Of a DNA stretch of 64,000 bases, positions 19,060 through 40,341 are shown piece after piece. The notes beneath the pieces were generated by a model. It had not been told where the DNA came from. It saw only the letters and a list, made by a program, of their open reading frames with translations, and did not search any database. The DNA lies in the NCBI GenBank assembly GCA_030152305.1, contig JASKOM010000001.1, positions 265,174-329,173 on the forward strand, given 5' to 3'. This DNA comes from Campylobacterota bacterium. Lineage in GTDB: Bacteria; Campylobacterota; Campylobacteria; Campylobacterales; Thiovulaceae. The position numbers were made by a program, and so were the translations under genes. Position 1 is the stretch's first letter, and every line of letters starts with the position of its first letter.

Positions 19060-19272
19060 TTATTGTAATTTCAACGAAACACTTTCATAAAGTTTTGCTT
19101 TTTTGTAAGCTTCTATATATAGCTTAATAATTTTTGGCACTTCAATATCACCAAGCACCCATCGATTAATAGTATTGGCGGTTTTATCGATATGTTCTGC
19201 GAAATCTTTTTGGGTCATTCCAATAGCTTTTAATTCGGCTTTCAAATCAAACTCTTTTTTTATTTCCTCCAT
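19060..19272 (-). CDS. XRE/Cro-type helix-turn-helix protein (H6, orphan)
   Basis: 70 aa. GMTQKDFAEHIDKTANTINRWVLG is an HTH_3 pattern. The first 25 aa are near-identical to H5 (20275-20499). Confidence 0.8.
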   Translation of the reverse strand: MEEIKKEFDLKAELKAIGMTQKDFAEHIDKTANTINRWVLGDIEVPKIIKLYIEAYKKAKLYESVSLKLQ

Positions 19273-19414: not shown

Positions 19415-20167
19415 TTAAACAATCGTTTTTATTTTCCACTTGATTTGATTAAACTTACCAACGATCGCAATTCCAAATTCTTCACCCGATGAGGTCATTT
19501 TCCAAATTCCATTTTCTTTAACTTGAAAACCTTTATGAGCTAACATCAAATTAATTTCGACAGGACTTTTGTTAATCATTTTGCCTAATTCAGTCGGAAG
19601 AAAGAATTGCGAATCAAGCTCTATTTCAAAATATTCAAGAACTGAAAAGTTATGAAACTTTCGATAAAACTTATCAAGTCGAAATAAATCGATTGGATTT
19701 GCATTTCGTAAATTTGCGAGTAAGTTTGTTGTTGCTGTGAAATTGTTATCAAGTTCGATTATCTGTTCAGTTGAATTTCCAATTTCTGGAAGTTGAGAAG
19801 TTTGAATTTGCGGTTTCTGATTTTGTAAAAGCTCTCGCATTCTAAAGAATTCCCCAACTAAACGGACTTTAAAATCTAAAACGATGTCGTTATTTCTCAT
19901 CATTGAAATTAGTAAAGTTGCTTGTTGCTCGTTGAGATAGAAAGTTTTAGCAGGTCTATAATTTGGATTAAGTTTTTGCTGTTCTTTTATTTCAAATTCG
20001 CCCTCGATTTTAAATCGCATCCGATCAAAAAGCTCGAATTTATCGATATTTGAAGTAATTAATTTAGGAATACTTCGCTCTAAGTTTTGTGTTTGTTCAG
20101 CGATAACTCGATGAGAAATTTGTGGTTCGTTGTCGATGAGTTCGACTAAGTTTGTTATAATTTCCAT
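19415..20167 (-). CDS. Rha-type N-terminal domain + KilAC/ANT-type C-terminal domain protein (R5)
   Basis: 250 aa. LVELIDNEPQISHRVIAEQT...TFYLNEQQATLLISMMRNNDIVLDFKVRLVGEFFRMRE is Rha-like. The C-terminal FFLPTELGKMINKSPVEINLMLAHKGFQVKENGIWKMTSSGEEFG is KilAC-like. Confidence 0.75.
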   Translation of the reverse strand: MEIITNLVELIDNEPQISHRVIAEQTQNLERSIPKLITSNIDKFELFDRMRFKIEGEFEIKEQQKLNPNYRPAKTFYLNEQQATLLISMMRNNDIVLDFKVRLVGEFFRMRELLQNQKPQIQTSQLPEIGNSTEQIIELDNNFTATTNLLANLRNANPIDLFRLDKFYRKFHNFSVLEYFEIELDSQFFLPTELGKMINKSPVEINLMLAHKGFQVKENGIWKMTSSGEEFGIAIVGKFNQIKWKIKTIV

Positions 20168-20274: not shown

Positions 20275-20499
20275 TTATACTTTAATGAAAAACTGTTGTT
20301 TTATAATTTCGTCAAGTGTTTTTGCTTTTTTGTAATTTTCAATTAATCGCTCGACCCATTTTGGCATTAATAAATCGCCTGTAATCCATCTACTGACTGT
20401 ATTATGATTAATTTCTGTATATTTTGCGAAATCTTTTTGAGTCATTCCAAGAGCTTTTAATTCGGCTTTCAAATCAAACTCTTTTTTTATTTCCTCCAT
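20275..20499 (-). CDS. XRE/Cro-type helix-turn-helix protein (H5)
   Basis: 74 aa. GMTQKDFAKYTEINHNTVSRWITG. Lies immediately upstream of R5 on the same strand. Confidence 0.8.
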   Translation of the reverse strand: MEEIKKEFDLKAELKALGMTQKDFAKYTEINHNTVSRWITGDLLMPKWVERLIENYKKAKTLDEIIKQQFFIKV

Positions 20500-20550
20500 T
20501 TAACACCTTTCCCAATTTTTCGTAATTTTAATATTTTTGGTTTTTCGATT

Positions 20551-20591
20551 ATCATCCCGAAGCGATAGCTCCTGTAATTCATTTCAGGATC
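20551..20591 (+). repeat. palindromic repeat element, long variant E5
   Basis: ATCATCCCGAAGCGATAGCTCCTGTAATTCATTTCAGGATC. Outer arms ATCCCGAA/TTCAGGAT enclose a small internal hairpin. Confidence 0.75.
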
Positions 20592-20650
20592 TAAAAAAAT
20601 TTTGCTACAATTCAAATCAAAAAATCTTAAATTATTTGTTTTAAATTTAT

Positions 20651-20760
20651 TTCAATAAGGCTTACCAAGTGCCTACAGCATAACTCAAGCTTTCTAAGTC
20701 ATTCGGCTTGAAAGCCTTATTGAAGTAAATTTTGAAGAGTTATGCTGTGAAACTTGGTAA
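20651..20760 (+). ncRNA. candidate structured leader / c4-like antisense element upstream of AntA paralog P1
   Basis: Helix TTACCAAGT (20662-20670) / ACTTGGTAA (20752-20760) is extended by the copy-specific ACAGCATAACTC (20675-20686) / GAGTTATGCTGT (20737-20748). A competing outer helix pairs 20651-20663 with 20712-20724. Confidence 0.45.
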
Positions 20761-20821
20761 CTTTCTTAGCAACTCTTCAGCAAAAAAATTTATTTTAATT
20801 CAATAATTTACCAAGTAAAAA

Positions 20822-21754
20822 ATGATGGAAATCGTAAAAATTGTGCCTCAAAAAATTGGGGAAGAGAATTCTCAAGCTGTGTCAGCGAGAGATTTACATA
20901 AATTCTTAGGTGTCAAAAGACAATTTGCAAACTGGATTAAGGATCAGCTTAATAGAGGTAGATTTATAGAAAATATCGATTATATAGTAGCTTCAACCGT
21001 TAACATAAATGTTAACGGCAAAAATGTAACAGCCGAAGCTAATTCTACACAGCGAGATCAATCTGGTAAATTTACATCGATTGAATATTTCTTAACTCTT
21101 GAAACTGCTAAACATGTATCTTTAATGAGTGAAACAGAAAAAGGTTATGAAGTTCGAAACTATTTTATTCGGATTGAAAAAGAGTATTCAAACTTAAAAA
21201 CTCAACAAGCTATTCATGAAGCCGTTGAGCAAGAACGAAAAAATCAAAATCCAAAACTTGAGTTAATCAAAGTTCGCGGAAATGGAAAAATTATTCGAAG
21301 ATCTTTCACGGATGCAGTTAAAGATTTTGTTGTTTATGCAAAATCGCAAGGTAGTCAAAATGCTGATCGTTATTATTTAATTTTCACAATTGAAATTTAT
21401 AGAAAACTTGGCTTAATCAAAACGAATAAAGATTTTGGCAAATTAAAAAATGCGATTTCTGAAATCAAATTAAATGAACAAGATCTTAAAAAACTAGATA
21501 AGCAATTTAATTTTCGCGATGAATTAGATGTTGAAAACTTAACAGTTGTTAGTTCGTGTGAAATTATTGTTCAGCGAATTATTGAAGATGAAATGACAAA
21601 ACAGACACCTTACAAACAAATTTTTAAAATTGCAAAAGCTCAACTTTCGACAATTCAAATCGCATTCGAGCCTTATATCGCAACCGCAAAACAGCAACTT
21701 GAATTCAAAGGGACTTTGTTTGAGTTTTTATTACTTGAAAATAAAGAATCTTAG
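20822..21754 (+). CDS. AntA-type N-terminal domain + P63C-like C-terminal domain protein (P1)
   Basis: 310 aa. AVSARDLHKFLGVKRQFANWIKDQ...EYFLTLETAKHVSLMSETEKGYEVRNYFIRIEKEY is AntA/AntB-like. GKIIRRSFTDAVKDFVVYAKSQGSQNADRYYLIFTIEIYRKLG...NFRDEL is P63C-like. Confidence 0.7.
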   Translation: MMEIVKIVPQKIGEENSQAVSARDLHKFLGVKRQFANWIKDQLNRGRFIENIDYIVASTVNINVNGKNVTAEANSTQRDQSGKFTSIEYFLTLETAKHVSLMSETEKGYEVRNYFIRIEKEYSNLKTQQAIHEAVEQERKNQNPKLELIKVRGNGKIIRRSFTDAVKDFVVYAKSQGSQNADRYYLIFTIEIYRKLGLIKTNKDFGKLKNAISEIKLNEQDLKKLDKQFNFRDELDVENLTVVSSCEIIVQRIIEDEMTKQTPYKQIFKIAKAQLSTIQIAFEPYIATAKQQLEFKGTLFEFLLLENKES

Positions 21755-21759
21755 TTTCC

Positions 21760-21800
21760 GTCATCCTGAAGCGAAAGCTCCTGTAACTTGTTTCGGGATC
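21760..21800 (+). repeat. palindromic repeat element, long variant E6
   Basis: GTCATCCTGAAGCGAAAGCTCCTGTAACTTGTTTCGGGATC with an internal GC-GAAA-GC hairpin. Confidence 0.8.
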
Positions 21801-21859
21801 TAAAAAAATTTTGCTACAATTCAAATCAAAAAATTTTAAATTATTTGTTTTAAGTTTAT

Positions 21860-21967
21860 TTCAACAAGGCTTACCAGTGCCTGTCACGAACTCTTCGCTT
21901 TCTGGTCATCTTGATTGGAAAGCCTTTTTGAAGTAAATTTTGAAGATGTTTGTGACGAAACTGGTAA
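21860..21967 (+). ncRNA. candidate structured leader / c4-like element upstream of P2
   Basis: TTACCAGT (21871-21878) / ACTGGTAA (21960-21967), plus the copy-specific GTCACGAACTCTTC (21883-21896) / GAAGATGTTTGTGAC (21942-21956). Confidence 0.45.
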
Positions 21968-22027
21968 CTTCTTAGCAACTCTTCAGCCAAAAAATTTATT
22001 TTAATTCTATAATTTACCAAGTAAAAA

Positions 22028-22906
22028 ATGATGGAAATCGTAAAAATTGTGCCTCAAAAAATTGGGGAAGAGAATTCTCAAGCTGTTTCAGCGAGAGATT
22101 TATATAAATTCTTAGGTGTAAAAAGACAGTTTTCAGACTGGATCAAGGATCAAATTAACAGAGGTTTGTTTGAGGAAAACATCGATTTTATCACGAGTTC
22201 ACAAAAAAGTGAAGTCGGCCCAGTTGTCAAAGAAGTAAAAGAATATTATTTGACAATTGAAACCGCGAAGTATATTGCTTTAATGAGTAGAACAGAAAAA
22301 GGTAAAGAAGTAAAAAGATATTTTCTCAAAATCGAAAAAGAGTATTTCAATTTGAAAGTTCATGAAGCCGTTGAGCAAGAACGAAAAAATCAAAATCCAA
22401 AACTTGAGTTAATCAAAGTTCGCGGAAATGGAAAAATTATTCGAAGATCTTTCACGGATACAGTTAAAGATTTTATCGTTTATGCAAAATCGCAAGGTAG
22501 TCAAAATGCTGATCGTTATTATTTAATTTTCACAATTGAAATTTATCGAAAACTTGGCTTAATAAAAACGAATAAAGATTTTGGCAAATTGAAAAATGCG
22601 ATTTCTGAAATAAAATTAAACGATGAAGATCTTAAAAAACTAGATAAGCAATTTAATTTTCGCGATGAATTAGATGTTGAAAACTTAACCGTTGTTAGTT
22701 CGTGTGAAATTATTGTTCAGCGAATTATCGAAGACGAAATGACAAAACAGACACCTTACAAACAAATTTTTCAAATTGCAAAAGCTCAACTTGCAACAAT
22801 TTCAATCGCATTCGAGCCTTATATTGTAACCGCAAAACAGCAACTTGAATTTAAAAATACACTTTTTGAGTTTTTATTACTTGAAAATAATCCTGTTGTG
22901 AATTAA
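22028..22906 (+). CDS. AntA-type + P63C-like protein (P2)
   Basis: 292 aa. Paralog of P1 with a different segment between ENIDF and EYYLT. C-terminus is ...LLLENNPVVN, as in P4. Confidence 0.7.
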   Translation: MMEIVKIVPQKIGEENSQAVSARDLYKFLGVKRQFSDWIKDQINRGLFEENIDFITSSQKSEVGPVVKEVKEYYLTIETAKYIALMSRTEKGKEVKRYFLKIEKEYFNLKVHEAVEQERKNQNPKLELIKVRGNGKIIRRSFTDTVKDFIVYAKSQGSQNADRYYLIFTIEIYRKLGLIKTNKDFGKLKNAISEIKLNDEDLKKLDKQFNFRDELDVENLTVVSSCEIIVQRIIEDEMTKQTPYKQIFQIAKAQLATISIAFEPYIVTAKQQLEFKNTLFEFLLLENNPVVN

Positions 22907-23012
22907 TTCGTAGATTCTAAAACGAGAAGTTATTTGAAACTTGATAATTCATGACTTTATTAATCGTGTTTATCTGATAAAATTATCTAAAGTTTTATTA
23001 AAGGAGTTTTTT

Positions 23013-23351
23013 TTGAAATTATTTTCAATTGTGTTGATTTCAAGTTCTTTTTTGTTTGCTGATTTTCAGGATGAATTAGATAATGATCCTCGTGAGGCTA
23101 ACAAAAAATATATTGACAAATATAACCGTGAGTTTAATGCAAATCATTCAAAGATCAAAAAATTGTTAGATCGTAATTTAAAATGTTTGGAAGGAACTGA
23201 AAAAATTGCGAGTAATCTTAAATGCTATTCGGTTTATTTATCGATTACGGAGTTAAAAGAGAAAAAGCATGTTGATCAAGCTTTGATAGATCAACTTGAA
23301 ACACATTGTCCAGATTGGAAAGATTATCAAGTCGAGGAGTGCGAAAAATGA
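23013..23351 (+). CDS. small secreted protein, unknown function
   Basis: TTG start at 23013 lies 7 nt after AAAGGAG and gives MKLFSIVLISSSFLFADF (signal peptide). The ORF-track start at 22941 has no RBS. Confidence 0.5.
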   Translation: MKLFSIVLISSSFLFADFQDELDNDPREANKKYIDKYNREFNANHSKIKKLLDRNLKCLEGTEKIASNLKCYSVYLSITELKEKKHVDQALIDQLETHCPDWKDYQVEECEK

Positions 23352-23920
23352 AAAAAATATTTTTAGCGATGTCGTTGCCAATTTCACTTTTGGCTACGGA
23401 TATTAGCAATTATAAACAGCCTGAACGAGTAGAATCTCAACAAGAAAAGTTAAATAAAGCTAAACAACAAAAAGAAGAAATTCGTAGAAAATTAAGCGAG
23501 ATTCCGGGGCTTCAAAAAAAGATAATTGCAATGCAAGAAACTATAAAAAGAGCTTCAGATCATCAGCGAAAATTAGCTGACACATATGCAAAAGCTAATA
23601 AATTTTGCGAAGAACAAAAGGCAAAAAACGAGCTAAAAGGCATGAAATATACTCATATAGAAAAAATTTATAAAGATTGTCAAGAAGAAATGAAATTAGA
23701 TGATATTTTTTCGTCAGATCAACATAATCAGTTAATGACTGATATAAAGTCGTTTAAACAAGCTATTCAGACACATATTGAAGAAAGTGATGCTCTTGTT
23801 AATAAAAAAGAGGCTCTTGAAATGAAAGAGACTTATATAAGTGAAGCTATTTTAATGCTTGAAGAATCTGTTAATAATCCTGATGGTAGTAAATCAGACA
23901 ATGAAAAAGAATCAAAATAA
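23348..23920 (+). CDS. secreted coiled-coil protein
   Basis: The ATG at 23348 overlaps the previous stop as ATGA. MKKIFLAMSLPISLLATD is a signal peptide. The sequence is homologous to the N-terminal ~150 aa of the 27078-28703 product (KLS.IPGL, KKE.LEM.E.Y.SEA..MLE). Confidence 0.6.
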   Translation: MKKIFLAMSLPISLLATDISNYKQPERVESQQEKLNKAKQQKEEIRRKLSEIPGLQKKIIAMQETIKRASDHQRKLADTYAKANKFCEEQKAKNELKGMKYTHIEKIYKDCQEEMKLDDIFSSDQHNQLMTDIKSFKQAIQTHIEESDALVNKKEALEMKETYISEAILMLEESVNNPDGSKSDNEKESK

Positions 23921-23923
23921 TAG

Positions 23924-24999
23924 ATGAGGTATTTAATGAAATTCAATAAAATAAAAATTGCGGTTATATTTAGTGTATTATCAGCAATTGAATTAAGCGG
24001 TGGAAATTATAATTTAAGTTGTGGCAATGTTCCAGATGATGCTATTGAGGAACTTAATAATTTAATAACAGATGAAAAAACAGCACCAATGGAAATGGTG
24101 TTTTTGGTGTGGATGTTGGTTTTAAAAAAACTGGTGATTTATATATTGGTTTCTTTTCTTTAAATCAAAACAACATAGCTGAATATAAACAACATGTTTT
24201 TAACGGACGAGAAAACAAAGAACCTCATCGTGTTGAATATGCTTTGTCAGATAAATATTCAACAACGGTTGAAAAATATTATTATTCAAAAGATCCGCTT
24301 TCTATTATTGTGTTTGCTAACGATCAAGTTTTTGATGTTCCTGTTGCAAAACTTGGACTAAACAATAAAGATTCAATTTTTGTTCTTGGCAATGAAATAG
24401 CTTTAAAGCTTGATATTGGCGGTAACAATAAAAAAGCACCTGATTATGAAAATTATTTAAATTCAGAAGAAATCAAAACTGCTCAAAATCAAGCAAAAGC
24501 ACGAGCTGATGAAGCCGAAGCAAATGAAAAACGAGAAAAAGCAAAAATTCAAGCTACAAAAATAAGTTCTGGTGGTGGAAAATCAGATGCTGGTTCAGGT
24601 TCAAATAATCATCCAACTGATTACGACACGGTTAAACAGCCAAAAGAAGACGAATATCGAGAAAAAGGAAATAAAAAAGCTGAAAGTGAAGAACAAGAAC
24701 AATCTCCTCAATCTTAAAAACCTGACTGCACAACCCCAATAAATGTGGCTATAAAAAACATTAACGGTAATAAAACTTGTGCTACTACAAAGTGGGAAGA
24801 TTTTAAAAAAGGTTTTAATGATAATTTTGAATTTGATTCGAATAAACAAGCATATAAAGTAAAAAAAGCTGAAGCACTAAGCTCACCTAACTGTAAAAAT
24901 GATGATTATGTGCAATTTTTTGATGGTAGTAAAGGTAGTAAAGGTTGCCAACTTTCAAATGCACAAATTGCTGAAGCTATAAATTTTAGCAAAAAATAA
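23924..24999 (+). pseudogene. disrupted secreted-protein gene (1 frameshift + 1 in-frame TAA)
   Basis: The signal-peptide ORF (23924-) changes frame at the A6 run 24075-24080; an A7 would join it to ...NSTNGNGVFGVDVGFKKTG. An in-frame TAA at 24715-24717 separates 24109-24717 from 24745-24999. The paralog 27078-28703 reads straight through the equivalent point. Confidence 0.65.
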
Positions 25000-25934
25000 T
25001 GAACATATTTATTAAAAAGTTTTTTACACTTAGCATAAGTTTATCAACGATGCTATTTGCTGATTTTTCTGAAGAATCAAATAAAAAAGAACAAGATCAA
25101 GATGTTGAAACTTTGATTAAAGAATATCAAAAATATAAAAATAGTGATGTTCAAGAAGTTCAAGATAATCAAAACGAAAACGAGCCTGTCGAAGAATTGC
25201 CAAAAGCTAAAAAGCCACAAACTAAAACTTCGTCAAATCCAGAAATTCAAGCTCTAAAAGATGAATATACAAAATATAAAAATGCAGTCGAATCTGATAT
25301 TAACATAGTTAAAAATGGTCAAATTAACGAATTGCCTGAATTAAAAAAATTGGCAATAAAACCTGATTTGCAAATTACTATCGATGCAATCGAAGAAGGA
25401 GCTCAAAAAAAAGCTCTTCAATCTGATGCCTATTTATATTTAAAACGATGGTTTTTACTTGCTGATGAGGTCGATAGTGAAGATAAAGAGACTTTATTTT
25501 ATTTAATACTCGATTCTCATTTTAAACAAAACATGGCTGAAGTCGAATCTTTGACAATTAATGAAGATTTTATTTCAGATCAAGAATTCATGGATTTTAT
25601 TAAATTGGGCTATGACGAATATATGGAATATTTAACAATGATCGCGGAAGATTTCGGTGATATCGATGAAAAATATTACAACAAAATAAAATATCGAGTT
25701 ACATCAAAAGGTGGTTTGAGTGTTCAAAAAGATCCATTAACAGGAATTGAACTCAAAAGCAAAAAAGTTATTCCAAATAAAGCAATAGTTTATGTCAAAT
25801 ATTCAACTCGAGGATCTGATAAAAATTTCAAAAATTCATTTAATAAAAAGTTTGCCAAAATCGAATATGAAACCGACGATGAAAAAATAATTGGTTGGGT
25901 TGATTTCAAATCGTTAGTCAAAAAAAACAGATAA
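24999..25934 (+). CDS. secreted protein with possible C-terminal SH3b-like domain
   Basis: 311 aa. Signal peptide MNIFIKKFFTLSISLSTMLFA, an acidic/Q-rich N-terminal region, and C-terminal ...AKIEYETDDEKIIGWVDFKSLVKK. Confidence 0.5.
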   Translation: MNIFIKKFFTLSISLSTMLFADFSEESNKKEQDQDVETLIKEYQKYKNSDVQEVQDNQNENEPVEELPKAKKPQTKTSSNPEIQALKDEYTKYKNAVESDINIVKNGQINELPELKKLAIKPDLQITIDAIEEGAQKKALQSDAYLYLKRWFLLADEVDSEDKETLFYLILDSHFKQNMAEVESLTINEDFISDQEFMDFIKLGYDEYMEYLTMIAEDFGDIDEKYYNKIKYRVTSKGGLSVQKDPLTGIELKSKKVIPNKAIVYVKYSTRGSDKNFKNSFNKKFAKIEYETDDEKIIGWVDFKSLVKKNR

Positions 25935-25970
25935 AACACAAAACAAAAATCCAAAACTAAAAGAATATAA

Positions 25971-27071
25971 ATGATATTAAAAACAAAATCTTTTATATTT
26001 TTCGCTATTTTTTTGACCTCATCGGTATTATTAAATGCCGAAGGTTCTCATTTTATTTTTAATTCTAATGTTGTTGAAAAAAGAAAAACTTTACAACAAG
26101 AATTAAAAATACTCGATGAAAAAGTCGTCAAATTATTTAATCTCGAAAAAGAATTAAATAATAAACAGCTATTAAACAAACATGAAATAAGCGAAAAACA
26201 GGCTGAACAAAAAGAACTTTTGTCTCAAATTAAATTTTACGATATAAAAAAATTATCTATCGATTATCTTAACGAACATATAAACATCGAACTTTTAAAA
26301 TCAAAAAGTTTTGAAAAACAATTAAATAATTTTTCTTTCTACGACACGAAATATAATAATTTATTTAATTTTTATATGAACGAAAATCAAGACGGCATGA
26401 CAAAATGTCTCAAATTCGAAAAATCTTTTAATTTTAAAGTTTCTCAAGATTATCGAGATTTAGAATCAACTAAACAAATAAAAGACACTTTTTTATATTT
26501 TGAAAATTTAATTTATTACACAAATATAAAAATTCGCAAATTAGATCGTGGAGATTATTATGATCGTTATGACGAATTACCTTCGAAAGCTATTTTAAAA
26601 GAATTTGTAAATTATATAAATAGCAAACAAAAAGAATTAATCTCATTTTTATATACTCAATTTTATGAACTTGCCTTTTTAAAACATCGAAATATTTCAT
26701 TTTTATTTGGCTTAAATATTTATTTAAACAGCGATAAAAATTTAATAATCGAATATTACGGCATCGATTCTGAACAAAATTACAAAACTGATCATATTTA
26801 TATTCCCGCTGAATCTATTGGTAAAGATATAAAAAATAATTTAGTCATGAAAACAGTTTATACAGCAAATCGAAAAGAACCTACAAATGTTATTATGACT
26901 TATCAAAATTATGAATATTGGCTTCCTGTAACTCTTTTTGCTAATCATACTTCAGCTCAAATTATCAAAAATGAACTTGATTTTTGGATTTTTAAAAATA
27001 ATATTAGTCCAGCTCGAAGTTTCATTCGAGAGCAATATATACAACTGTTCAAAAATAAAGTCGAGGATTAA
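25971..27071 (+). CDS. secreted protein, unknown function
   Basis: 366 aa with a signal peptide (FIFFAIFLTSSVLLNAEG) and an N-terminal coiled coil. Confidence 0.5.
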   Translation: MILKTKSFIFFAIFLTSSVLLNAEGSHFIFNSNVVEKRKTLQQELKILDEKVVKLFNLEKELNNKQLLNKHEISEKQAEQKELLSQIKFYDIKKLSIDYLNEHINIELLKSKSFEKQLNNFSFYDTKYNNLFNFYMNENQDGMTKCLKFEKSFNFKVSQDYRDLESTKQIKDTFLYFENLIYYTNIKIRKLDRGDYYDRYDELPSKAILKEFVNYINSKQKELISFLYTQFYELAFLKHRNISFLFGLNIYLNSDKNLIIEYYGIDSEQNYKTDHIYIPAESIGKDIKNNLVMKTVYTANRKEPTNVIMTYQNYEYWLPVTLFANHTSAQIIKNELDFWIFKNNISPARSFIREQYIQLFKNKVED

Positions 27072-27077
27072 ACTTTT

Positions 27078-28703
27078 ATGAAAATCATATTTTCGTTTTT
27101 TATATTTATTGGTCTATTATTTAGTGAAGATATTAATCAAAATAAAACAAAATTAAATCAACTCAAAACTAAACGAGATGAAATTCGCGGAAAATTAAGT
27201 CAAATTCCAGGTTTGGAACAAAAAATGAAAGAAATGAAAGCTAAGATCGAAAAGGTTTCAAAAAGTGCTCAAAAAATGCAGGAAATTAAAGCCAGATTAG
27301 ATAAATTAGAACATTCAACATCTTTTGATAATCAACACGAAGAATATATGTTATCAGCTGAAAATTTCAAAGATAGCTTAAAACAACATATTCAAAAAAA
27401 TGCAGTGATTTTTAATGAACTTATGGATAAAAAAGAATCTTTAGAAATGGTTGAACAATATACAAGTGAAGCCGTTGCAATGCTTGAAGATATGATAAAT
27501 AAACCTTATGAAAAAATTGATTATGAACAAGCAAGAAAAGAATCTGAAGCTAAAGCCGAACGATCAAAAAAACAAGCCGAAGCAAAAGCACGAGCTGAAG
27601 CCGAAGAAAATGAAAAACGAGAAAAAGCAAAAATTCAAGCTACAAAAATAGGTTCTGGTGGTGTAAAATCAGATGCTAGTTGTAGTTTGAATCATCCAAC
27701 TGATTATGACACAGTTAAACAACAAAAAGAAGATGAATATCGTGAACAACCAAAAGAAGACGAATATCGAGAAAAAGGAAATAAAGAAGCTGAAAACGAA
27801 GCAAATCAACATTCTTCTCAATCTCCTAATGATTGTAAAGAAACCCCAAAAAATGTGGCTATAAAAAATATTAACGGTAATAAAACTTGTGCTACTACAA
27901 ATTGGAAAAATTTTAAAGAAGGTTTTAATTCTGTTTTTGAATTTGATTCGAATAAACAAGCATATCAAGTAAAAAAAGCTGAAGCACTTTCTTCACCTAA
28001 CTGTCGAAATGGTGATTATGTGCAATTTTTTGATAACAGTAATATTTGCCAACTTTCAAATGAACAAATTAGCGAGGCAATAAATAGTAATTATCGTAGT
28101 TTGAATCATCCAACTGATTACGACACGGTTAAAGCTACAAAAATAGGTTCTGATGGTGAAAAATCAAATGCTGGTTCAAATTCACCAAATTATTCAACTA
28201 ATTACGACACAGTTAAAGCTACAAAAATAGGTTCTGGTGGTGAAAAATCAAATGCTGGTTCAAATTCACCAAATTATTCAACTAATTACGACACAGTTAA
28301 AGCTACAAAAATAGGTTCTGGTGGTGAAAAATCATATGCTGGTTCAAATAATTATTCATATGATTATGACACTGTTAAACAGCCAAAAGAAGACGAATAT
28401 CGCGAACAAGGAAATAAAGAAGCTGAAACATATTCTAACGATTGTAAAGAATTCCCAAGAAAAATTGCAATCAAACATCTTGACGGTGAGAAATGTGCAA
28501 CTGTTGTTACAAAACTATCTTTTCAAGAAAATTTCAATCTTGATTTCGAAGCTGTTCGTGGAAAACAAAGAACATATCGAGTCAAAAATCAACAAACAGA
28601 TTGTAAAGTCGGTGAGCAAATTCAATTTTTTGATGCTAACAAAGATTGCCAACTTTCAAATGATCAAATAGCTGAAATTATAAATTTTAGCAAAAATAAA
28701 TAA
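27078..28703 (+). CDS. secreted modular repeat protein
   Basis: 541 aa: signal peptide, coiled coil, a charged AKARAEAEENEKREKAK segment, NHPTDYDTVK motifs, two copies of a ~80-aa Cys-containing module (...KTCATTNWKNFKEGFN...CQLSNEQISEAIN), and three 28-aa tandem repeats. Confidence 0.6.
   Translation: MKIIFSFFIFIGLLFSEDINQNKTKLNQLKTKRDEIRGKLSQIPGLEQKMKEMKAKIEKVSKSAQKMQEIKARLDKLEHSTSFDNQHEEYMLSAENFKDSLKQHIQKNAVIFNELMDKKESLEMVEQYTSEAVAMLEDMINKPYEKIDYEQARKESEAKAERSKKQAEAKARAEAEENEKREKAKIQATKIGSGGVKSDASCSLNHPTDYDTVKQQKEDEYREQPKEDEYREKGNKEAENEANQHSSQSPNDCKETPKNVAIKNINGNKTCATTNWKNFKEGFNSVFEFDSNKQAYQVKKAEALSSPNCRNGDYVQFFDNSNICQLSNEQISEAINSNYRSLNHPTDYDTVKATKIGSDGEKSNAGSNSPNYSTNYDTVKATKIGSGGEKSNAGSNSPNYSTNYDTVKATKIGSGGEKSYAGSNNYSYDYDTVKQPKEDEYREQGNKEAETYSNDCKEFPRKIAIKHLDGEKCATVVTKLSFQENFNLDFEAVRGKQRTYRVKNQQTDCKVGEQIQFFDANKDCQLSNDQIAEIINFSKNK
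28134..28379 (+). repeat. 84-nt tandem coding repeat, about 3 units
   Basis: Units start at 28134, 28218 and 28302 and encode ATKIGSGGEKSNAGSNSPNYSTNYDTVK. The first two units are near-identical at the DNA level. Confidence 0.9.
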
Positions 28704-28783
28704 CTAACACAATTCACGACTTTATCGATAATTTATTTTTTTCGATGAGGTCCGTTTCTTCGAAACAAAATAAAATAATTAAA

Positions 28784-29701
28784 ATGGAACATAAATATAT
28801 GGGTGATCAAGCAACGGTTTTCTTAAATCAAACATCAGCAACAAACAGATCTAATAATCAATCAAATCAGTCAAATAAATTTTTCAATAAGTATCTCAAA
28901 GCTTTTCTATTTATTATATTAATAATTATTGCTAGTTCAATAACTTATTATTACGATTATCAATCAGCAAAAACTAAAGAACAGGAACAAAAAAAAGAAT
29001 CTGAACTTGAATCAGAAAAGTTAAAAAAAATCGAAGCTGAAAAATTGCAAAAATACGAATTAGAGTTAAAAAGAATCGAAGCCGAAGAATTACAAAAAGC
29101 TGAACTCGAACGACAAAGAATCGAAGCTGAAAAATTACAAAAAGCTGAACTTGAACAACAACGACTCGATGCTGAAAAATTACAACAATACGAATTAGAG
29201 TTAAAAAGAATGGAAGCCGAAGATTTTCAAAAAGCTCAACTCGAGAAACAAAGAATCGAAGCTGAAAAATTACAAAAAGCTGAACTCGAACGACAACGAA
29301 TCGAAGCTGAAAAATTAAAAAAAGCTAAACTTGAAAAACAACGAATCGAAGCTGAAAAAACCACACAACCTAAACCATCAAATAAAAATGGCATTGTTGT
29401 AATTAACGATTTAATGTTTCAAGATCAACAATTGCCAAATCAAATGAGTTGGACTGAAGCAGTAAGTTATTGCAAAAATCTAACATTTAAAGGTTATTCC
29501 GATTGGAAATTACCAGATCTTGAAGATTTAACAATTGCTTTTCAAAATAAGTCAAAATTCAAAAACTTACAACAAAGTTGGTATTGGAGCAGAACAAATC
29601 ACGATAATTTTGGTGCGAAATTCATAGATTTTCACAGCGGATTAACCGATTGGGATGTTCAAACAGCAAACGGTTTTGCTTTTTGCTCAAGAGATTTGTG
29701 A
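28784..29701 (+). CDS. membrane-anchored coiled-coil repeat protein with C-terminal DUF1566 (Lcl-C-like) domain
   Basis: One TM segment (FLFIILIIIASSITYYY), repeats of the AEKLQKAELERQRIE type, and C-terminal MSWTEAVSYCKNL...YSDWKLPDLEDL...WYWSRT. The start is uncertain. The ORF-track ATG at 28745 lies inside a GATGAGGT motif. Confidence 0.6.
   Translation: MEHKYMGDQATVFLNQTSATNRSNNQSNQSNKFFNKYLKAFLFIILIIIASSITYYYDYQSAKTKEQEQKKESELESEKLKKIEAEKLQKYELELKRIEAEELQKAELERQRIEAEKLQKAELEQQRLDAEKLQQYELELKRMEAEDFQKAQLEKQRIEAEKLQKAELERQRIEAEKLKKAKLEKQRIEAEKTTQPKPSNKNGIVVINDLMFQDQQLPNQMSWTEAVSYCKNLTFKGYSDWKLPDLEDLTIAFQNKSKFKNLQQSWYWSRTNHDNFGAKFIDFHSGLTDWDVQTANGFAFCSRDL
29040..29358 (+). repeat. 45-nt periodic coding repeat (IEAEKLQKAELERQR heptad-like units)
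   Basis: About 7 diverged units of ATCGAAGCTGAAAAATTACAAAAAGCTGAACTCGAACGACAAAGA. Confidence 0.8.
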
Positions 29702-29723
29702 AATTCAAAAAAACAGTTTTTCC

Positions 29724-29764
29724 GTCATCCTGAAGCGAAAGCTCCTGTAACTTGTTTCGGGATC
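29724..29764 (+). repeat. palindromic repeat element, long variant E7
   Basis: Identical to E6: GTCATCCTGAAGCGAAAGCTCCTGTAACTTGTTTCGGGATC. Confidence 0.8.
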
Positions 29765-29825
29765 TAATTAAAAATTTTGCTACAATTCAAATCAAAAAAT
29801 CTTAAATTATTTGTTTTAAATTTAT

Positions 29826-29946
29826 TTCAACAAGGCTTACCAGTGCCTAAGATTCAATCTTTCATACCTTCTTGCTTATCTTGAAGGTATTCTGATACAA
29901 GCCTTTTTGAAGTAAATTTTGAAGAGATTGAATCTGAAACTGGTAA
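29826..29946 (+). ncRNA. candidate structured leader / c4-like element upstream of P3
   Basis: TTACCAGT (29837-29844) / ACTGGTAA (29939-29946), copy-specific AGATTCAATCTTTC (29850-29863) / GAAGAGATTGAATCT (29921-29935), and a copy-specific inner hairpin ATACCTTC (29864-29871) / GAAGGTAT (29883-29890). Confidence 0.45.
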
Positions 29947-30005
29947 CTTCTTAGCAACTCTTCAGCCAAAAAATTTATTTTAATTCTATAATTTACCAAG
30001 TAAAA

Positions 30006-30917
30006 ATGACAGAAATCGTTCAAATTGTGCCTCAAAAAATTGGGGACGAGAATTCTCAAGTTGTGTCAGCGAGAGATTTACATAAATTCTTAGGTGTCAA
30101 AAGACAATTTGCAAACTGGATAAAAGATCAAGTGAGACGAGGTCGCTTTAAAGAGAATATCGATTATATCGTTACTCAAGAGGTTGTTAACATTAATGTT
30201 AACAACCTCAATTTAGGTGGAAGACCTTCAATTGAATATTTCTTAACTCTTGAAACTGCTAAACATGTATCTTTAATGAGTGAGACAGAAAAAGGTTATG
30301 AAGTTCGAAACTATTTTATTCGGATTGAAAAAGAGTATTTCAATTTAAAAGCTCAAGAGTTTGCTAATCAAGAATTAGAAAAATATAAACAATCTCAATC
30401 GCAAAGTCAAAATCCAAAACTTGAGTTAATCAAAGTTCGTGGAAATGGAAAAATTATTCGAAGATCTTTCACGGATGTAGTTAAAGATTTTATCGTTAAT
30501 GCAAAATCGCAAGGTAGTCAAAATGCTGATCGTTATTATTTAATTTTCACGATTGAAATTTATCGAAAACTTGGCTTGATAAAAACGAATAAAGATTTTG
30601 GCAAATTAAAAAATGCTATTTCTGAAATCAAATTGAATGAAGGCGATCTTAAACAATTAGATAAGCAATTTAACTTTCGAGATGAATTAGATGTTGAAAA
30701 CTTAACCGTTGTTAGTTCGTGTGAAATTATTGTTCAGCGAATTATCGAAACTGAAATGACAAAACAGACACCTTACAAACAAATTTTTCAAATTGCAAAA
30801 GCTCAACTTGCAACAATTTCAATCGCTTTTGAACCTTATATCGCAACTGCAAAACAGCAACTTGAATTTAAAAATACACTTTTTGAGTTTTTATTACTTG
30901 AAAATAAAGAATCTTAG
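30006..30917 (+). CDS. AntA-type + P63C-like protein (P3)
   Basis: 303 aa. Closest to P1: same FANWIKDQ and EYFLTLETAKHVSLMSETEKGYEVRNYFIRIEKEY, and the same ...ENKES end. Confidence 0.7.
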   Translation: MTEIVQIVPQKIGDENSQVVSARDLHKFLGVKRQFANWIKDQVRRGRFKENIDYIVTQEVVNINVNNLNLGGRPSIEYFLTLETAKHVSLMSETEKGYEVRNYFIRIEKEYFNLKAQEFANQELEKYKQSQSQSQNPKLELIKVRGNGKIIRRSFTDVVKDFIVNAKSQGSQNADRYYLIFTIEIYRKLGLIKTNKDFGKLKNAISEIKLNEGDLKQLDKQFNFRDELDVENLTVVSSCEIIVQRIIETEMTKQTPYKQIFQIAKAQLATISIAFEPYIATAKQQLEFKNTLFEFLLLENKES

Positions 30918-30922
30918 TTTTC

Positions 30923-30966
30923 GTCATCCTGAAGCAAACCCGTCATCCCGAATTCATTTCAGGATC
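30923..30966 (+). repeat. palindromic repeat element E8 (partial copy + full copy)
   Basis: GTCATCCTGAAGCAAACCC followed by GTCATCCCGAATTCATTTCAGGATC. Confidence 0.75.
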
Positions 30967-31027
30967 TAATTAAAAATTTTGCTACAATTCAAATCAAAAA
31001 ATTTTAAATTATTTGTTTTAAGTTTAT

Positions 31028-31148
31028 TTCAACAAGGCTTACCAAGTGCCTGTAACATAGCTCACAAGCTTTCTAGTCATTTGACTTGAAAGCCTTTTTG
31101 AAGTAAATTTTGAAGAGCCATGTTACGAAACTTGGTAACTTTCTAGCA
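31028..31148 (+). ncRNA. candidate structured leader / c4-like element upstream of P4
   Basis: TTACCAAGT (31039-31047) / ACTTGGTAA (31140-31148), plus the copy-specific GTAACATAGCTC (31052-31063) / GAGCCATGTTAC (31125-31136) with one A/C mismatch. Confidence 0.45.
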
Positions 31149-31198
31149 ACTCTTCAGCAAAAAAATTTATTTTAATTCAATAATTTACCAAGTAAAAA

Positions 31199-32116
31199 AT
31201 GATGGAAATCGTGAAAATATTGCCTCAAAAAATTGGGGAAGAGAATTCTCAAGCTGTTTCAGCGAGAGATTTACATAAGTTTTTAGGTGTAAAAAAGAAG
31301 TTTGCAGACTGGATCAAAGATCAATTTGAGAGAGGTCGTTTCGAAGAAAATATCGACTATTCCACTGTTCCCCTAAAAGGGAAGAGTGAAAAAGTAACAC
31401 TTTTTGATAATGGTTTATACCGTAACCAACACGGTCAAGTTGTAACTGTTGATTATTTTTTAACAGTTGAGACAGCTAAATTAATTGCTTTTATTAGCGA
31501 AACTGAAAAAGGTCACGAAATAAAAAAGTATTTTCTCAAAGTTGAACGAGAATATTGGGAATTAAAAATTCAGGAAGCCGTTGAGCAAGATCGAAAAAAT
31601 CACAATCCAAAACTTGAGTTAATCAAAGTTCGCGGAAATGGAAAAATTATTCGAAGATCTTTCACGGATACAGTTAAAGATTTTATCGTTTATGCAAAAT
31701 CGCAAGGTAGTCAAAATGCTGATCGTTATTATTTAATTTTCACGATTGAGATTTATAGAAAACTTGGCTTAATAAAAACGAATAAAGATTTTGGCAAATT
31801 AAAAAATGCGATTTCTGAAATAAAACTAAATGATGAAGATCTTAAAAAACTAGATAAACAATTTAACTTTCGAGATGAATTAGATGTTGAAAACTTAACA
31901 GTTGTTAGTTCATGTGAAATTATTGTTCAGCGAATTATCGAAGATGAAATGTCAAAACAAACTCACTACAAAACAATTTTTCAAATTGCAAAAGCTCAAC
32001 TTTCAACAATTCAAATCGCATTCGAGCCTTATATCGCAACTGCAAAACAGCAACTTGAATTTAAAGGGACTTTGTTTGAGTTTTTATTACTTGAAAATAA
32101 TCCTGTTGTGAATTAA
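31199..32116 (+). CDS. AntA-type + P63C-like protein (P4)
   Basis: 305 aa. C-terminal two-thirds are near-identical to P2 (...ENNPVVN end). The segment between ENIDY and DYFLT is unique. Confidence 0.7.
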   Translation: MMEIVKILPQKIGEENSQAVSARDLHKFLGVKKKFADWIKDQFERGRFEENIDYSTVPLKGKSEKVTLFDNGLYRNQHGQVVTVDYFLTVETAKLIAFISETEKGHEIKKYFLKVEREYWELKIQEAVEQDRKNHNPKLELIKVRGNGKIIRRSFTDTVKDFIVYAKSQGSQNADRYYLIFTIEIYRKLGLIKTNKDFGKLKNAISEIKLNDEDLKKLDKQFNFRDELDVENLTVVSSCEIIVQRIIEDEMSKQTHYKTIFQIAKAQLSTIQIAFEPYIATAKQQLEFKGTLFEFLLLENNPVVN

Positions 32117-32199
32117 TTCAGAATGACAAACTTCTTCGTCATTCCAGTTTAAACCTCATCGCTAAGCTATAATTTCCAGTAAAAAAATGGATATTTATA

Positions 32200-34632
32200 A
32201 TGGAATATAAAGCTAAAGAAATAGAAAGTTTTTGGCAAAAACATTGGTTAGATAACCGACTTTTTGAACCTGAAGAAAACAGCTTAAAATCTAAAAAATA
32301 TGTTTTGAGCATGTTTCCGTATCCGTCGGGACGAATTCATATGGGACATGTCCGAAATTACACGATTGGCGATGCTTTTGCTCGATATTATCGTAAAAGC
32401 GGTTTTAATGTTCTTCATCCAATTGGTTGGGACAGTTTTGGTATGCCAGCTGAAAATGCGGCAATAAAACATGCTGTTCATCCAAAAAAATGGACTTACG
32501 AAAATATAAGTTATATGCGAAATGAATTAAGATCTCTCGGTTTATCTTTTTCGTCTGAACGAGAATTTGCAACTTCTGATCCAGATTATACGAAATTTGA
32601 ACAAGAATTTATTATCGATTTATGGAATCGTGGGCTTTTATATAAAAAGAAATCTCATTTAAATTGGTGTCCAAATGATCAAACGATTCTTGCAAATGAA
32701 CAAGTTATCGAAGGTCATTGTTGGCGATGTGATACTGAAATCGAACAAAAAGAGATGGAGCAATATTATTTAAAAATTACTGATTATGCTGATGAACTTT
32801 TGTCTGATCTTAAAAAATTAGATCAATGGCCAAATCAAGTTAAATTAATGCAAGAAAACTGGATTGGCAAAAGTCGAGGTTTAAAATTTAATTTTAAATT
32901 AGATAATTCGACCTCATCGCAAATAAATAATATCGAAGTTTTCACAACTCGACCAGACACGATTTATGGAGTTTCGTATATTGCCGTTGCTCCTGAACAT
33001 AAACTTGTTGATGAGGTCTTAGAATCTGATCTTATTTCTCAAGATGATAAAGATCAAATTTTGGCAATCAGAAAAACTTCGCCTCGAGATCGAGCAACTC
33101 ACGAAAAAAGCGGAATTAATTTAAATATTTTCGCAATTCATCCATTGACAAACGAAAAAATTCCAGTTTGGACAGCTAATTTTGTTCTTGTTGATTACGG
33201 TTCAGGTGCAGTTATGTCAGTTCCAGCTCATGACGAACGAGATTTTTTATTTTCGCAAAAATATAATTTGCCAATTAAAATTTCTGTTCAGCCAAAAAAT
33301 AATTCGAATAATATAAATTTGCCATTTGTTGATGATGGTGTTTTAATTAATTCGGATAAGTTTTCTGGTTTAGAATCAGCTGAAGCTCGTGAAGCGATAA
33401 TTAACGAATTTGAAAATTTAAATTTAGGCAAAGCTGTTATTAATTATAAATTGCGAGATTGGGGAATTTCTCGTCAGCGATATTGGGGTGCACCAATTCC
33501 ATTAATTCATTGTTCGACATGCGGAACTGTTCCAGAAAAAATAGACAATTTACCTGTTGCACTTCCTGATGATGTTCAAATTACTGGCGAAGGTAATCCG
33601 CTTGATCATCATCCGAATTGGAAATATTGCAAATGTCCAGTTTGTGGCAAAGATGCAATTCGAGAGACTGACACACTTGATACTTTTGTTCAATCATCTT
33701 GGTATCACTTGCATTATACGGCTCAAAATCCAAAAAAAGATGCTTTCGGAAATATCGATTATTGGCTTCCAGTTGATCATTATATTGGCGGAATCGAACA
33801 TGCGATTCTTCATCTTTTATATTCGCGATTTTTTACAAAAGTTCTAAGAGATCTTGGCAAAATCAAAATTGACGAACCATTTACACATCTTTTGACTCAA
33901 GGCATGGTTTTAAAAGATGGTGCAAAAATGAGCAAATCAAAAGGTAATGTCGTTGATCCAGATGAAATAATCGAAAAATATGGTGCTGATACAGCTAGAT
34001 TATTTATTTTATTTACAGCTCCACCAACAAAAGAGCTTGAATGGAATGACAGTGCCGTTGAAGGAGCTTATAAATTTGTTCGTCGATTAGCTTTAAAAAG
34101 CGAATTTGCAAATCAATCTGTTTTAATTAATCAGCCAATTATTGATCATTCGTCGTTAAGCAAAGAAGAAAAATTCGCTCGTCGAAAAGTATTCGAAGCA
34201 TTAATGAGAAGTCGTGAAGTTTTCACAAAAACTTATACTTTTAATACTTTGATTGCTGGTGTAATGGAAGCAATGAATGCTCTTGAAGATCAAAATAATA
34301 TAAATATTTGGTCTGAAGGCTATTGGATTTTATTAAATATTCTTGAGCCAATTGTTCCTCATATTTCTTGGGAATTATCTAAAAATTTATTCGATTTAAA
34401 TAATTTAAATAACGAAATAAATATTTATGATGAGGTTTTTCAACTTGATCAAATTACTCTTGGAGTTAGTGTCAATGGCAAAAATCGAGCGGAAATTTCT
34501 GTTTCGCCTGATTCAACAGAAAATGAAATTATTGCAGTTGCAAAAAATAGTGTTTCAAAATGGCTTGACGGTAAAACGATAGTCAAAGAAATTCTTGTTC
34601 AGCGAAAACTCGTAAATCTCGTAATTAAATAA
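32200..34632 (+). CDS. leuS: leucine--tRNA ligase
   Basis: 810 aa with the HIGH-type [10 protein letters not shown] and KMSKS motifs and a CP1 editing domain. Confidence 0.95.
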
Positions 34633-37956: not shown

Positions 37957-38712
37957 TTACAAAACAGCTTTAATCTTCCACTTTAATTGACTAAACTTAC
38001 CATTTATCTCAATTCCAAAATCACGACCAGATTTTGTTAATTTCCAAACACCATTTTCACGAATTTGAAAACCTTTATGTTCGAGCATCAAATTAATCTC
38101 GACCGCTGATTTGTTGATCATTTTGCCTAATTCAGTTGGTAAGAAAAATTGATTTTCGAGATCAATCTCAAAATGTTCAAGCGGTGAAAAGTTATGAAAC
38201 TTGCGATAAAACTTATCGAGTCGGTAAAGAGTTGTTGGATTCATATTTTGTAAATTTGCAATTAACTTTTCGGTTGCCGTTAAATTATTATCAAGTTCAA
38301 TAATTTTTTCAGTTTCATTTCCAATTTCTGGAAGTTGTAGGTTTTGAGTTTGCGATTTCTTATTTTGCAAAAGTTCTCGCATTCGAAAGAATTCGCTAAC
38401 TAATCGAACTTTGAAATCTAAAACAATGTCGTTATTTCTCATCATCGAAATTAGTAAAGTTGCTTGTGCTTCGTTTAAATAGAAAGTTTTTTGTTCAACT
38501 TGCCCTCTATCTTTACCATTTTTTGTTGTTCTATCTAAACCCTCATTTTTAAAATGAATGTTTCCAAAAAACTCGAATTTATCGATGTGTTTGTTGATCA
38601 TGTTTGCGATTGAAACAGCTAAGTTTTCTGTTTTTTCTGCGATAACTCGATGAGAAATTCGAGGTTCGTTGTCGATGAGTTCGACGATATTTGTGTTAAA
38701 ATTTGAGTCCAT
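37957..38712 (-). CDS. Rha-type + KilAC-type protein (R4)
   Basis: 251 aa. IVELIDNEPRISHRVIAEKTENLAVSIANMINKHIDKFEFF... The C-terminal ~130 aa are near-identical to R1, R2 and B3. Confidence 0.75.
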   Translation of the reverse strand: MDSNFNTNIVELIDNEPRISHRVIAEKTENLAVSIANMINKHIDKFEFFGNIHFKNEGLDRTTKNGKDRGQVEQKTFYLNEAQATLLISMMRNNDIVLDFKVRLVSEFFRMRELLQNKKSQTQNLQLPEIGNETEKIIELDNNLTATEKLIANLQNMNPTTLYRLDKFYRKFHNFSPLEHFEIDLENQFFLPTELGKMINKSAVEINLMLEHKGFQIRENGVWKLTKSGRDFGIEINGKFSQLKWKIKAVL

Positions 38713-38828
38713 TTTTTATCTTTCGTAAAAAATTAAAGTTCAAGATGGAAGAGTTCCAAAAATCCGTCTTGACTGGACAATTATACTATTTTAAAATATC
38801 ATTTTCAATTTTAAGCATATAAAAATAT

Positions 38829-39083: not shown

Positions 39084-39115
39084 GAATAAATCCTTTTGAT
39101 TTTCCGTAATTTTAA

Positions 39116-39874: not shown

Positions 39875-39946
39875 TTTGACCTTTAAAAATAAAATGATTA
39901 AGAAAGAAATATTTGCTGTGGTAGGTTGAATTTTCTTTCTGTTTTA

Positions 39947-40216: not shown

Positions 40217-40255
40217 GAATAAATCCTTTTGATTTTCCGTAATTTTAATATTTTT

Positions 40256-40332: not shown

Positions 40333-40341
40333 TAATTTTAA

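Follow-up and report, generated by a model that had tools for sequence, protein, structure and literature searches.

The 64,000-nucleotide (nt) window analysed here comes from a Campylobacterota bacterium of the Thiovulaceae (contig JASKOM010000001.1) and carries four intact open reading frames (ORFs) with an AntA domain, the genes P1 to P4. All four lie on the plus strand, encode 292-310 amino acids (aa) and are arranged two and two around a 6.8-kb block of orphan genes for secreted proteins, referred to as the cargo. The AntA pairs and the cargo are located directly upstream of leuS, with 83 nt between the end of P4 and the leuS start. Some 270 nt on the 5' side of each gene are common to all of them and comprise a hairpin repeat (E), an A/T-rich stretch with TGCTACAAT, and a conserved leader, so named below as Leader 1 to Leader 4; the units made up of these elements and one gene are called U1 to U4. 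The window has a GC content of 30%. An earlier note on this DNA gave the coordinates of P1-P4 and the order and orientation of the units correctly, as ORF calls and alignment confirm, but took the locus for two duplicated blocks enclosing a cargo in the manner of a composite element. The evidence presented here points instead to two tandem pairs of a recombining, leader-controlled family of AntA-type regulators around an orphan cluster, and not to a composite mobile element. The features of the locus and its immediate neighbours are as follows.

19060..19272, minus strand: HTH1, a small helix-turn-helix (HTH) gene of the XRE type (Pfam HTH_3), 60% identical to HTH2 and flanked by E hairpins at 18984 and 19340
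19415..20167, minus strand: regulator of the Rha family (Pfam Phage_pRha), belonging to the second multigene family of the window; three Rha genes at 38-42 kb are 69-73% identical to it, and its C-terminal half is shared with a Bro-N gene
20275..20499, minus strand: HTH2, XRE-type, divergent from P1 (Pfam HTH_3 and HTH_26); direct repeat D8, 81% identical to the HTH1 region
20553..20590, plus strand: E5, long variant of the E hairpin, which resembles repetitive extragenic palindromic (REP) elements
20603..20611, plus strand: TGCTACAAT, extended -10-like box (read from the sequence)
20632..20821, plus strand: Leader 1 (covariance model R1, 128 bits)
20822..21754, plus strand: P1, 310 aa, N-terminal AntA domain (Pfam) and C-terminal module
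21762..21799, plus strand: E6 hairpin, directly 3' of the P1 stop codon
21841..22027, plus strand: Leader 2 (model R1, 111 bits)
22028..22906, plus strand: P2, 292 aa (Pfam), short AntA insert subtype; no E hairpin on its 3' side
22907..29723, plus strand: cargo of nine ORFs, in order c136, c204, c79, c202, c84, c311, c366, c541 and c318
29726..29763, plus strand: E7 hairpin, 3' of the c318 stop codon
29807..30005, plus strand: Leader 3 (model R1, 114 bits)
30006..30917, plus strand: P3, 303 aa (Pfam)
30925..30965, plus strand: E8, one partial and one full short copy of the E hairpin, in this order
31009..31198, plus strand: Leader 4 (model R1, 123 bits)
31199..32116, plus strand: P4, 305 aa (Pfam), AntA insert subtype PLKGKSEKVTLFDNGLYRN; no E hairpin on its 3' side
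32200..34632, plus strand: leuS, the housekeeping neighbour on the right; the leuS-MFS pair is kept in the closest relative

The leader RNA

Each of the genes P1-P4 is preceded by a structured leader core of about 150 nt. A scan of the whole window at the Rfam gathering thresholds returned only transfer RNAs (tRNAs) and no leader match, and a cmscan of 20500-22100 at E<=10 gave 15 chance-level matches, none of them to C4. Metagenome contigs were scanned with an invariant 17-18-mer of the leader, followed by nhmmer and the covariance model R1. About 30 copies were found in low-GC metagenome contigs, and 26 distinct ones were used for the tests of position and folding. The copies lie 35-55 nt (mostly 37-44) upstream of an ATG, which belongs to an AntA gene in most cases, to a Bro-N gene in L057 and L113, and to a Rha gene in L040. 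Two motif scans of viral contigs in IMG/VR gave chance matches only, none of which passed the covariance model. The leader thus has the properties expected of a structured cis-regulatory RNA motif, undescribed and absent from Rfam. A hammerhead, or another known ribozyme or riboswitch, was considered and rejected, because Rfam has no match and the stretch between the candidate core motifs does not form a hairpin of its own. An intrinsic terminator inside the leader was also discarded, as only the inner hairpin of U2 fits the terminator scan and this fit is not conserved.

The extended -10-like box TGCTACAAT is present in all four units. Homologous boxes are found in Candidatus Thiovulum stygium (TGTTATAAT) and in contig L065 (TGCTATAAT), and several other metagenome copies begin, at the very start of the extracted sequence, with the ATAAT end of a -10-like box. 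The box is a putative promoter. Each of P1-P4 would be its own expression unit, composed of E hairpin, extended -10-like box, structured leader and ORF.

Leader 1 consists of an outer stem (P1), the helices H1 and H2, an inner hairpin (P3) and a GAAGAG/CTCTTC pair (P4); these stems are RNA helices, named separately from the genes P1-P4. The outer stem, ATTTAyTTTAGnAAGGCTT/AAGyCTTnCTAAGGTAAAT, is paired in 98.7% of cells across the copies; nine of its 18 pairs have changed on both sides, and the observed covariation was not reached in any of 500 shuffles. H1 pairs TTACCAAGT with ACTTGGTAA, and the six sequences without the A are all also without the paired T. In H2, every one of the 11 pairs has changed on both sides, and 91% of cells are paired, compared with 27-41% when the partners are slid along each other. 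The outer stem and H1/H2 cross without a linker and must therefore belong to alternative states. State A would be formed by the outer stem (18 base pairs) and the inner hairpin, and state B by H1 (TTACCAAGT/ACTTGGTAA) stacked on the hypervariable H2. In 24 of the 26 sequences the minimum-free-energy fold is one of these two states: state A, for example, in Leader 1 (z = -5.0) and state B in the leader of L065 (z about -5). Under constrained folding, the energy gap between the states is below about 5 kcal/mol for 17 of the 26 sequences and below 7 kcal/mol for 22; three of the large gaps look like register errors. Covariation in both crossing helices and their nearly equal energy suggest that the leader is a switch.

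Most likely, the leader would act as a two-state RNA switch on the expression of the regulator gene behind it. The middle strand could instead sequester the translation start region, given the partial copies of the 5' elements beside the start codon. These comprise an ATTTAyC-like copy at about -30 and a TACC at about -12, and the leaders of the window have the full TTACCAAGT 7 nt before the ATG. A pairing of middle strand and start region that is specific to cognate partners was rejected, cognate and non-cognate pairs being alike.

The hypervariable helix H2

The 22 H2 arm sequences are all different, with about 32% identity between them, whereas the flanks of the leader are nearly invariant. 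This is far more divergence than at the synonymous sites of the same units (synonymous divergence, pS, 0.14-0.22). Within one metagenome family with near-identical flanks, at least eight leaders each have an H2 of their own. Cognate arms pair over a mean run of 12.1 nt, non-cognate arms over 5.0 nt. A recognition of H2 by the variable insert of the AntA domain was considered and does not fit the data. The same H2, AACAGAAACAT, stands before two AntA subtypes and a Bro-N gene (L016, L052, L113), and because identical H2 sequences precede different proteins, H2 is not matched to the protein. Conversely, P1 and P3 share a recognition block, yet their H2 arms are unrelated.

There is established precedent for antisense control of antirepressor genes: in phages P1 and P7, ant is under the control of c4 through complementary sequences that determine heteroimmunity, and in P22 it is under the control of sar (PMC12197685). 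In P1/P7, the complementary segments differ in sequence between elements that are otherwise alike (PMC12197685; Citron and Schuster 1990 as cited there). The leader could be a co-transcribed antisense regulator of this c4 type, an explanation that we hold to be possible rather than probable. The 5' hairpin (the outer stem P1) would present H1a and H2a in its loop, and these would act, possibly after processing and in trans, on the downstream H2b and H1b, so that H2 would be the address that keeps the control of the paralogues orthogonal. A uniqueness of H2 in 22 leaders amid near-invariant flanks, beyond the divergence of synonymous sites, is what such an address would produce, as is the failure of non-cognate arms to pair, and the scheme would also account for an outer stem and an H1/H2 that are both real yet crossing. 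With icd-ant of P1/P7 under c4 and with P22 sar, the leader has in common a (here predicted) RNA-level control 5' of an antirepressor-type gene and complementary segments within one transcript. However, its arms are about 12 nt long, are contained within a two-state fold and have no similarity to Rfam C4, and the target arm is located 60-75 nt upstream of the ATG, not on the ribosome-binding site. A purely cis-acting two-state switch accounts for the same covariation, and the identical H2 upstream of three different proteins (L016, L052, L113) fits a modular leader but is silent on action in trans. By analogy with the phage systems, it may tentatively be suggested that H2 is an address code: the leader would be a c4-like co-transcribed module with unique arms of 11-14 nt, conferring orthogonal post-transcriptional control on each Ant/Bro/Rha paralogue. 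If true, a single chromosome could operate a dozen phage-type regulators, each gated independently, which might serve as sensors in defence against phages. An anti-phage context fits loosely with the restriction-modification and toxin-antitoxin neighbours in other contigs and with a KilA-N match to PADLOC family PDC-S22.

AntA-type regulators as a recombining family

All four proteins match the Pfam AntA domain (PF08346) over residues ~20-100, with 69-81 bits against a gathering cutoff of 27, and also match the PHROG 'anti-repressor Ant' families (PHROGs 5817 and 377). Their N-terminal 100-130 residues resemble those of phage AntA/AntB antirepressors, with phage homologues 33-38% identical over that half. 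However, the C-terminal 180 residues are a different module, elsewhere mostly fused to Rha, and the genes are chromosomal, multi-copy and outside any recognisable prophage; antirepressor activity is putative. The C-terminal module has 535 representative homologues. Among 32 sampled ones, it is fused to Rha in 20 cases, AntA in four, Bro-N and KilA-N in two each, and P22_AR_N and ORF6N in one each. The module also occurs in the KilA-N gene at 6087-6998 (phrog_2657). Eleven full-length paralogues were found on five contigs, all of them in one NCBI assembly, and elsewhere only the N-terminal domain is matched; the same gene type is thus present at seven further places in the genome beyond P1-P4. 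A PDB profile search with P1 found nothing.

The AntA inserts recur outside the locus. The P4 type is found in AntA-1 of Ca. Thiovulum stygium and in the paralogue P0006, the P2 type in contigs L065, L056 and L052, and the GGRPS motif of P3 in P0009 and P0010. The inserts accordingly appear to be ancient subtypes common to several species.

The BRO/KilA-N/Rha multigene families of large DNA viruses and phages, among them the baculovirus repeated ORFs, reportedly evolve by domain shuffling (Iyer, Koonin and Aravind 2002). The genes of the window are similar in having many paralogues per genome that recombine among themselves, and in having DNA-binding N-domains swapped onto conserved C-modules (AntA, KilA-N and Rha on module 1; Rha and Bro-N on module 2). 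They differ in that the expansion is in a bacterial chromosome and that one subfamily has a dedicated structured RNA leader. In total, ten Ant/Bro/Rha/KilA-N genes are set among the housekeeping genes of the 64 kb. A second family, consisting of four Rha genes (19415, 37957, 40342 and 41539) and a Bro-N gene (39116), shares another C-terminal half and is accompanied by four small XRE HTH genes.

The earlier note proposed a dot-plot of the two blocks, and 20552-22909 and 29725-32119 do align end to end, with 84.5% identity over 2437 columns. Its further observations that the homology of P2 and P4 stops just past GTGAATTAATTC, and that divergence peaks both at alignment columns 121-180, the leader helices, and at columns 421-570, the AntA insert, were reproduced. 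The same is true of the pairing of P1 with P3, which share an AntA recognition block that is 98% identical (columns 571-630) and an ENKES tail. The pairing of P2 with P4 holds for the tails and C-terminal halves but not for the AntA inserts, which are unrelated (15-50% identity, columns 451-570). Two cleanly duplicated 2.4-kb units cannot be recognised, because all six pairings of units are about equally similar and the lowest pS is found between neighbours. The ~1.2-kb units show 79.6-85.5% identity by blastn, and their identities in a four-way MAFFT alignment are 0.80 (U1-U2), 0.81 (U1-U3), 0.81 (U1-U4), 0.80 (U2-U3), 0.82 (U2-U4) and 0.74 (U3-U4). In the conserved C-terminal block, pS ranges over 0.14-0.22, with 0.14 for P1-P2, 0.19 for P2-P4 and 0.22 for P1-P3. 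In a test for a recent duplication of a two-gene block, the cross-block partners (U1-U3, U2-U4) were not clearly closer along their whole length, and a partner signal was present only in blocks.

The informative sites are distributed in the same patchy way. Sixty-nine sites divide the units two and two, joining U1 with U3 in 36 cases, with U4 in 26 and with U2 in seven. The first grouping is favoured in the AntA block and at the last six informative sites, and the second at the start of the unit, in part of the leader and in the 3' part of the gene. The partition switches 22 times between adjacent informative sites, compared with 39.7 +/- 3.8 switches expected from permutations (p<1e-5). This clustering of mosaic blocks argues for gene conversion among the copies, and its significance indicates that homologous recombination between the direct repeats is real; the longest identical tracts between units measure 58-140 bp. 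The ratio of non-synonymous to synonymous divergence (pN/pS) is 0.14-0.24 in the C-terminal and 0.18-0.29 in the N-terminal block, values that together with the pS of 0.14-0.22 mark the genes as old and functional. P1-P4 are therefore best described as old paralogues, apparently under purifying selection, the conserved parts of which have been homogenised by gene conversion. Unequal crossing-over that deletes or amplifies the cargo is plausible on the same sequence grounds. Short-read Logan contigs of the same strain break at the AntA repeats and contain no alternative junction, although these data could not have revealed one.

Cargo, neighbourhood and origin of the locus

According to the earlier note, the cargo encodes only signal-peptide or membrane-anchored proteins. 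Visual inspection or a crude hydrophobicity test gave an N-terminal signal peptide or anchor for six of the nine ORFs. The three without one, c79, c202 and c84, derive together with c204 from a broken paralogue of c541, the 541-aa gene (27078-28703); this paralogue spans 23306-24999, has 29-65% identity to c541 and contains an in-frame stop. The c136 product has an N-terminal signal or anchor if translation starts, as is probable, at the TTG at 23013 behind AAAGGAG. Searches of the nine ORFs against Pfam, PHROGs, NCBIfam and PADLOC gave no family except the Lcl_C domain of c318, and c366 had no homologue among 5.8 billion proteins. Two of the genes contain internal repeats: the part of c541 at 27596-28701 has three 84-nt tandem repeats, ATKIGSGGEKSNAGSNSPNYSTNYDTVK, and two copies of a Cys-containing domain of ~80 aa, and in c318 the Lcl_C domain is preceded by seven 45-nt repeats (28974-29404), whose product is a coiled coil, EAEKLQKAELERQRI. 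The cargo can be read as a group of rapidly evolving orphan genes whose products are secreted or anchored, with internal duplication and a decayed copy.

The E repeat (ATCCyGAA...TTyrGGAT) is a hairpin of 22-41 nt with 11 matches at nine intergenic sites in the window (5930, 7018, 18984, 19326/19340, 20553, 21762, 29726, 30925/30944 and 42723). It occurs as GTCATCCCGAATTTATTTCGGGATCT and as a long variant with a loop about 16 nt longer, always between genes and usually just past a stop codon. Like the REP-type palindromic repeats, E is a short, recurrent, intergenic hairpin; unlike the known ones, its sequence is genome-specific and absent upstream of the T. stygium leader, and no link to a RAYT transposase was seen. 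E was also considered as the attC site of an integron-like cassette array and rejected, since the scanned ORFs include no integrase and E has no attC core. As neither P2 nor P4 is followed by an E hairpin, transcription may read through from P2 into the cargo, where the next gene starts ~106 nt after the P2 stop on the same strand, and from P4 into leuS.

Further features lie around the locus. At ~20.5 kb, the gene orientation flips from minus to plus, the GC skew changes sign and the cumulative skew has its minimum; this switch could be a mere gene-strand effect or a replication landmark. Four tRNA genes are clustered at 8260-8652 (Gly-GCC, Leu-TAA, Cys-GCA and Ser-TGA). On the left, 5428-6998 holds a T5orf172-domain gene and the KilA-N gene, each with an E hairpin just on its 3' side (5930, 7018), and the KilA-N protein (6087-6998) matches the PADLOC candidate defence family PDC-S22 with E = 3e-13. 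On the right, 37957-42297 (minus strand) contains, in order, Rha, a 103-aa HTH gene, Bro-N, a 139-aa HTH gene, Rha and Rha, with C-terminal halves 69-93% identical among the members and to Rha 19415. This cluster adjoins a putative restriction-modification pair (43223-44941), an N6_N4 methylase and an Mrr-like nuclease.

LeuS is 70% identical to that of Thiovulum sp. ES and 80% identical to that of the nearest metagenomic relative, and the best genomic match of the AntA family is in Ca. Thiovulum stygium. The region upstream of leuS, which the earlier note had proposed for comparison, carries in the 80% relative a nucleotidyltransferase toxin-antitoxin pair and a beta-propeller gene but no AntA gene, with leuS-MFS kept; in relatives with 73% and 71% LeuS identity, it is not syntenic. 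The differing genes upstream of leuS therefore mark the region as variable. T. stygium likewise has two AntA genes in tandem; their N-subtypes differ, their C-halves are nearly identical, an HTH gene separates them and an Lcl_C gene lies beside the pair. In its deposited sequence CP091137 (L002 10001-12107), frameshifts or stops divide both AntA genes (235+60 aa and 83+185 aa), so that they are either pseudogenes or products of homopolymer errors in a metagenome-assembled genome. In contig L072, a Bro-N gene and then a leader-AntA gene adjoin glmS. In L110 (169-8757), a leader-AntA gene has a fused C5/N6 DNA methylase with HNH nuclease on one side; on the other are a BrnA antitoxin, an SMC-like ATPase and an FtsK/HerA-like ATPase, a context that looks like a defence island.

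Two other origins of the locus have to be weighed. The genes from 18.9 to 32.1 kb (HTH, Rha, HTH, two AntA genes, secreted proteins, two AntA genes) might be a decayed prophage or genomic island inserted between a sulfatase-family gene and leuS, with the AntA pairs as immunity or antirepressor remnants. The regulators are indeed all of phage type (XRE HTH, Rha, and AntA with PHROG anti-repressor matches), the cargo genes are orphans, and the closest LeuS relative (80%) keeps leuS-MFS with different accessory genes upstream, while more distant relatives have no synteny. However, no integrase, att-like flanking repeats, or structural or replication genes were found in 18.9-32.2 kb, and the GC content of the locus equals that of its surroundings. 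Similar regulator clusters are present among housekeeping genes at 6.1 kb and at 38-42 kb, and other genomes have them beside glmS or restriction-modification genes. Given regulator clusters at several chromosomal sites, the family looks dispersed and chromosomal and not like one island, and an origin of this kind appears rather unlikely.

A composite transposon consists of two insertion sequence (IS) copies that bracket a cargo. The locus is similar in that direct repeats of ~2.4 kb flank unrelated genes and could recombine arm with arm, and the earlier note had the repeats bracketing the cargo as a composite-like element, the copy number of which varies by such recombination. The end-to-end alignment of the arms at 84.5%, the common right-hand junction GTGAATTAATTC, the past recombination among the copies and the breaks of the same-strain Logan contigs at the repeats are all compatible with it. 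Nevertheless, the model is very improbable. The arms, ~84% identical, are no more alike than any two units and are mosaic both with each other and internally, their identical tracts do not exceed 140 bp, and the AntA subtypes of P2 and P4 are not the same. What is repeated is one gene from an 11-member family, the flanks encode regulators and not transposases, and the pairs are not a recent block duplication. The same gene type occurs at seven other places in the genome, and T. stygium has a tandem pair without such a cargo. Neither a transposase nor an integrase nor a phage structural gene turned up in the locus or among 29 further ORFs of the window; outside the locus, the scan covered about half of the ORFs that are 100 aa or longer. 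The outer ends have no terminal inverted repeats (the repeat search gave one unrelated inverted pair only) and no target-site duplication, as the left flank (TTTTTCGATT followed by ATCATCC) and the right flank (GAATTAATTC followed by AGAATGAC) share nothing duplicated.

Some observations fit less well with tandem pairs of leader-controlled AntA-type regulators that merely adjoin an orphan cluster. The parallel tails (ENKES and E in the first gene of each pair, ENNPVVN and the GTGAATTAATTC junction in the second) and the AntA match of P1 and P3 would fit an ancient duplication of the pair that has since been overwritten by conversion. In the Thiovulaceae contig L065 (65-5000; LeuS 73%), a lipoprotein gene and a leader-AntA gene are divergent from leuS and 1.8 kb away, and the linkage of leuS, secreted protein and AntA could be more than chance. 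As to the protein, the AlphaFold model of P1, built on an 11-sequence alignment, has a mean confidence (pLDDT) of 44 and is unusable. As to the leader, the pairing of the middle strand with the start region is about 2 kcal/mol better than in shuffled sequences and is strong only in U1 and U4 (-11.6 kcal/mol). With this weak pairing, translational sequestration is tentative, and translational control by the leader can be proposed only in that sense.

As a composite element, the locus would be ordinary, and its annotation as a mobile element is unwarranted. As a set of recombining regulators, it illustrates the part that gene conversion and module swapping play in shaping families of this kind, and the reason why assemblies from short reads break at them. 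The leader itself appears to be a widespread, undescribed motif before antirepressor-type genes (AntA, Bro-N, Rha) in Thiovulum-like Campylobacterota, with two mutually exclusive helices supported by covariation and one stem rewritten in every copy. It would provide a testable example of RNA-level gating of phage-derived regulators beyond c4 of phage P1 and sar of P22, and may represent a natural set of orthogonal RNA switches.

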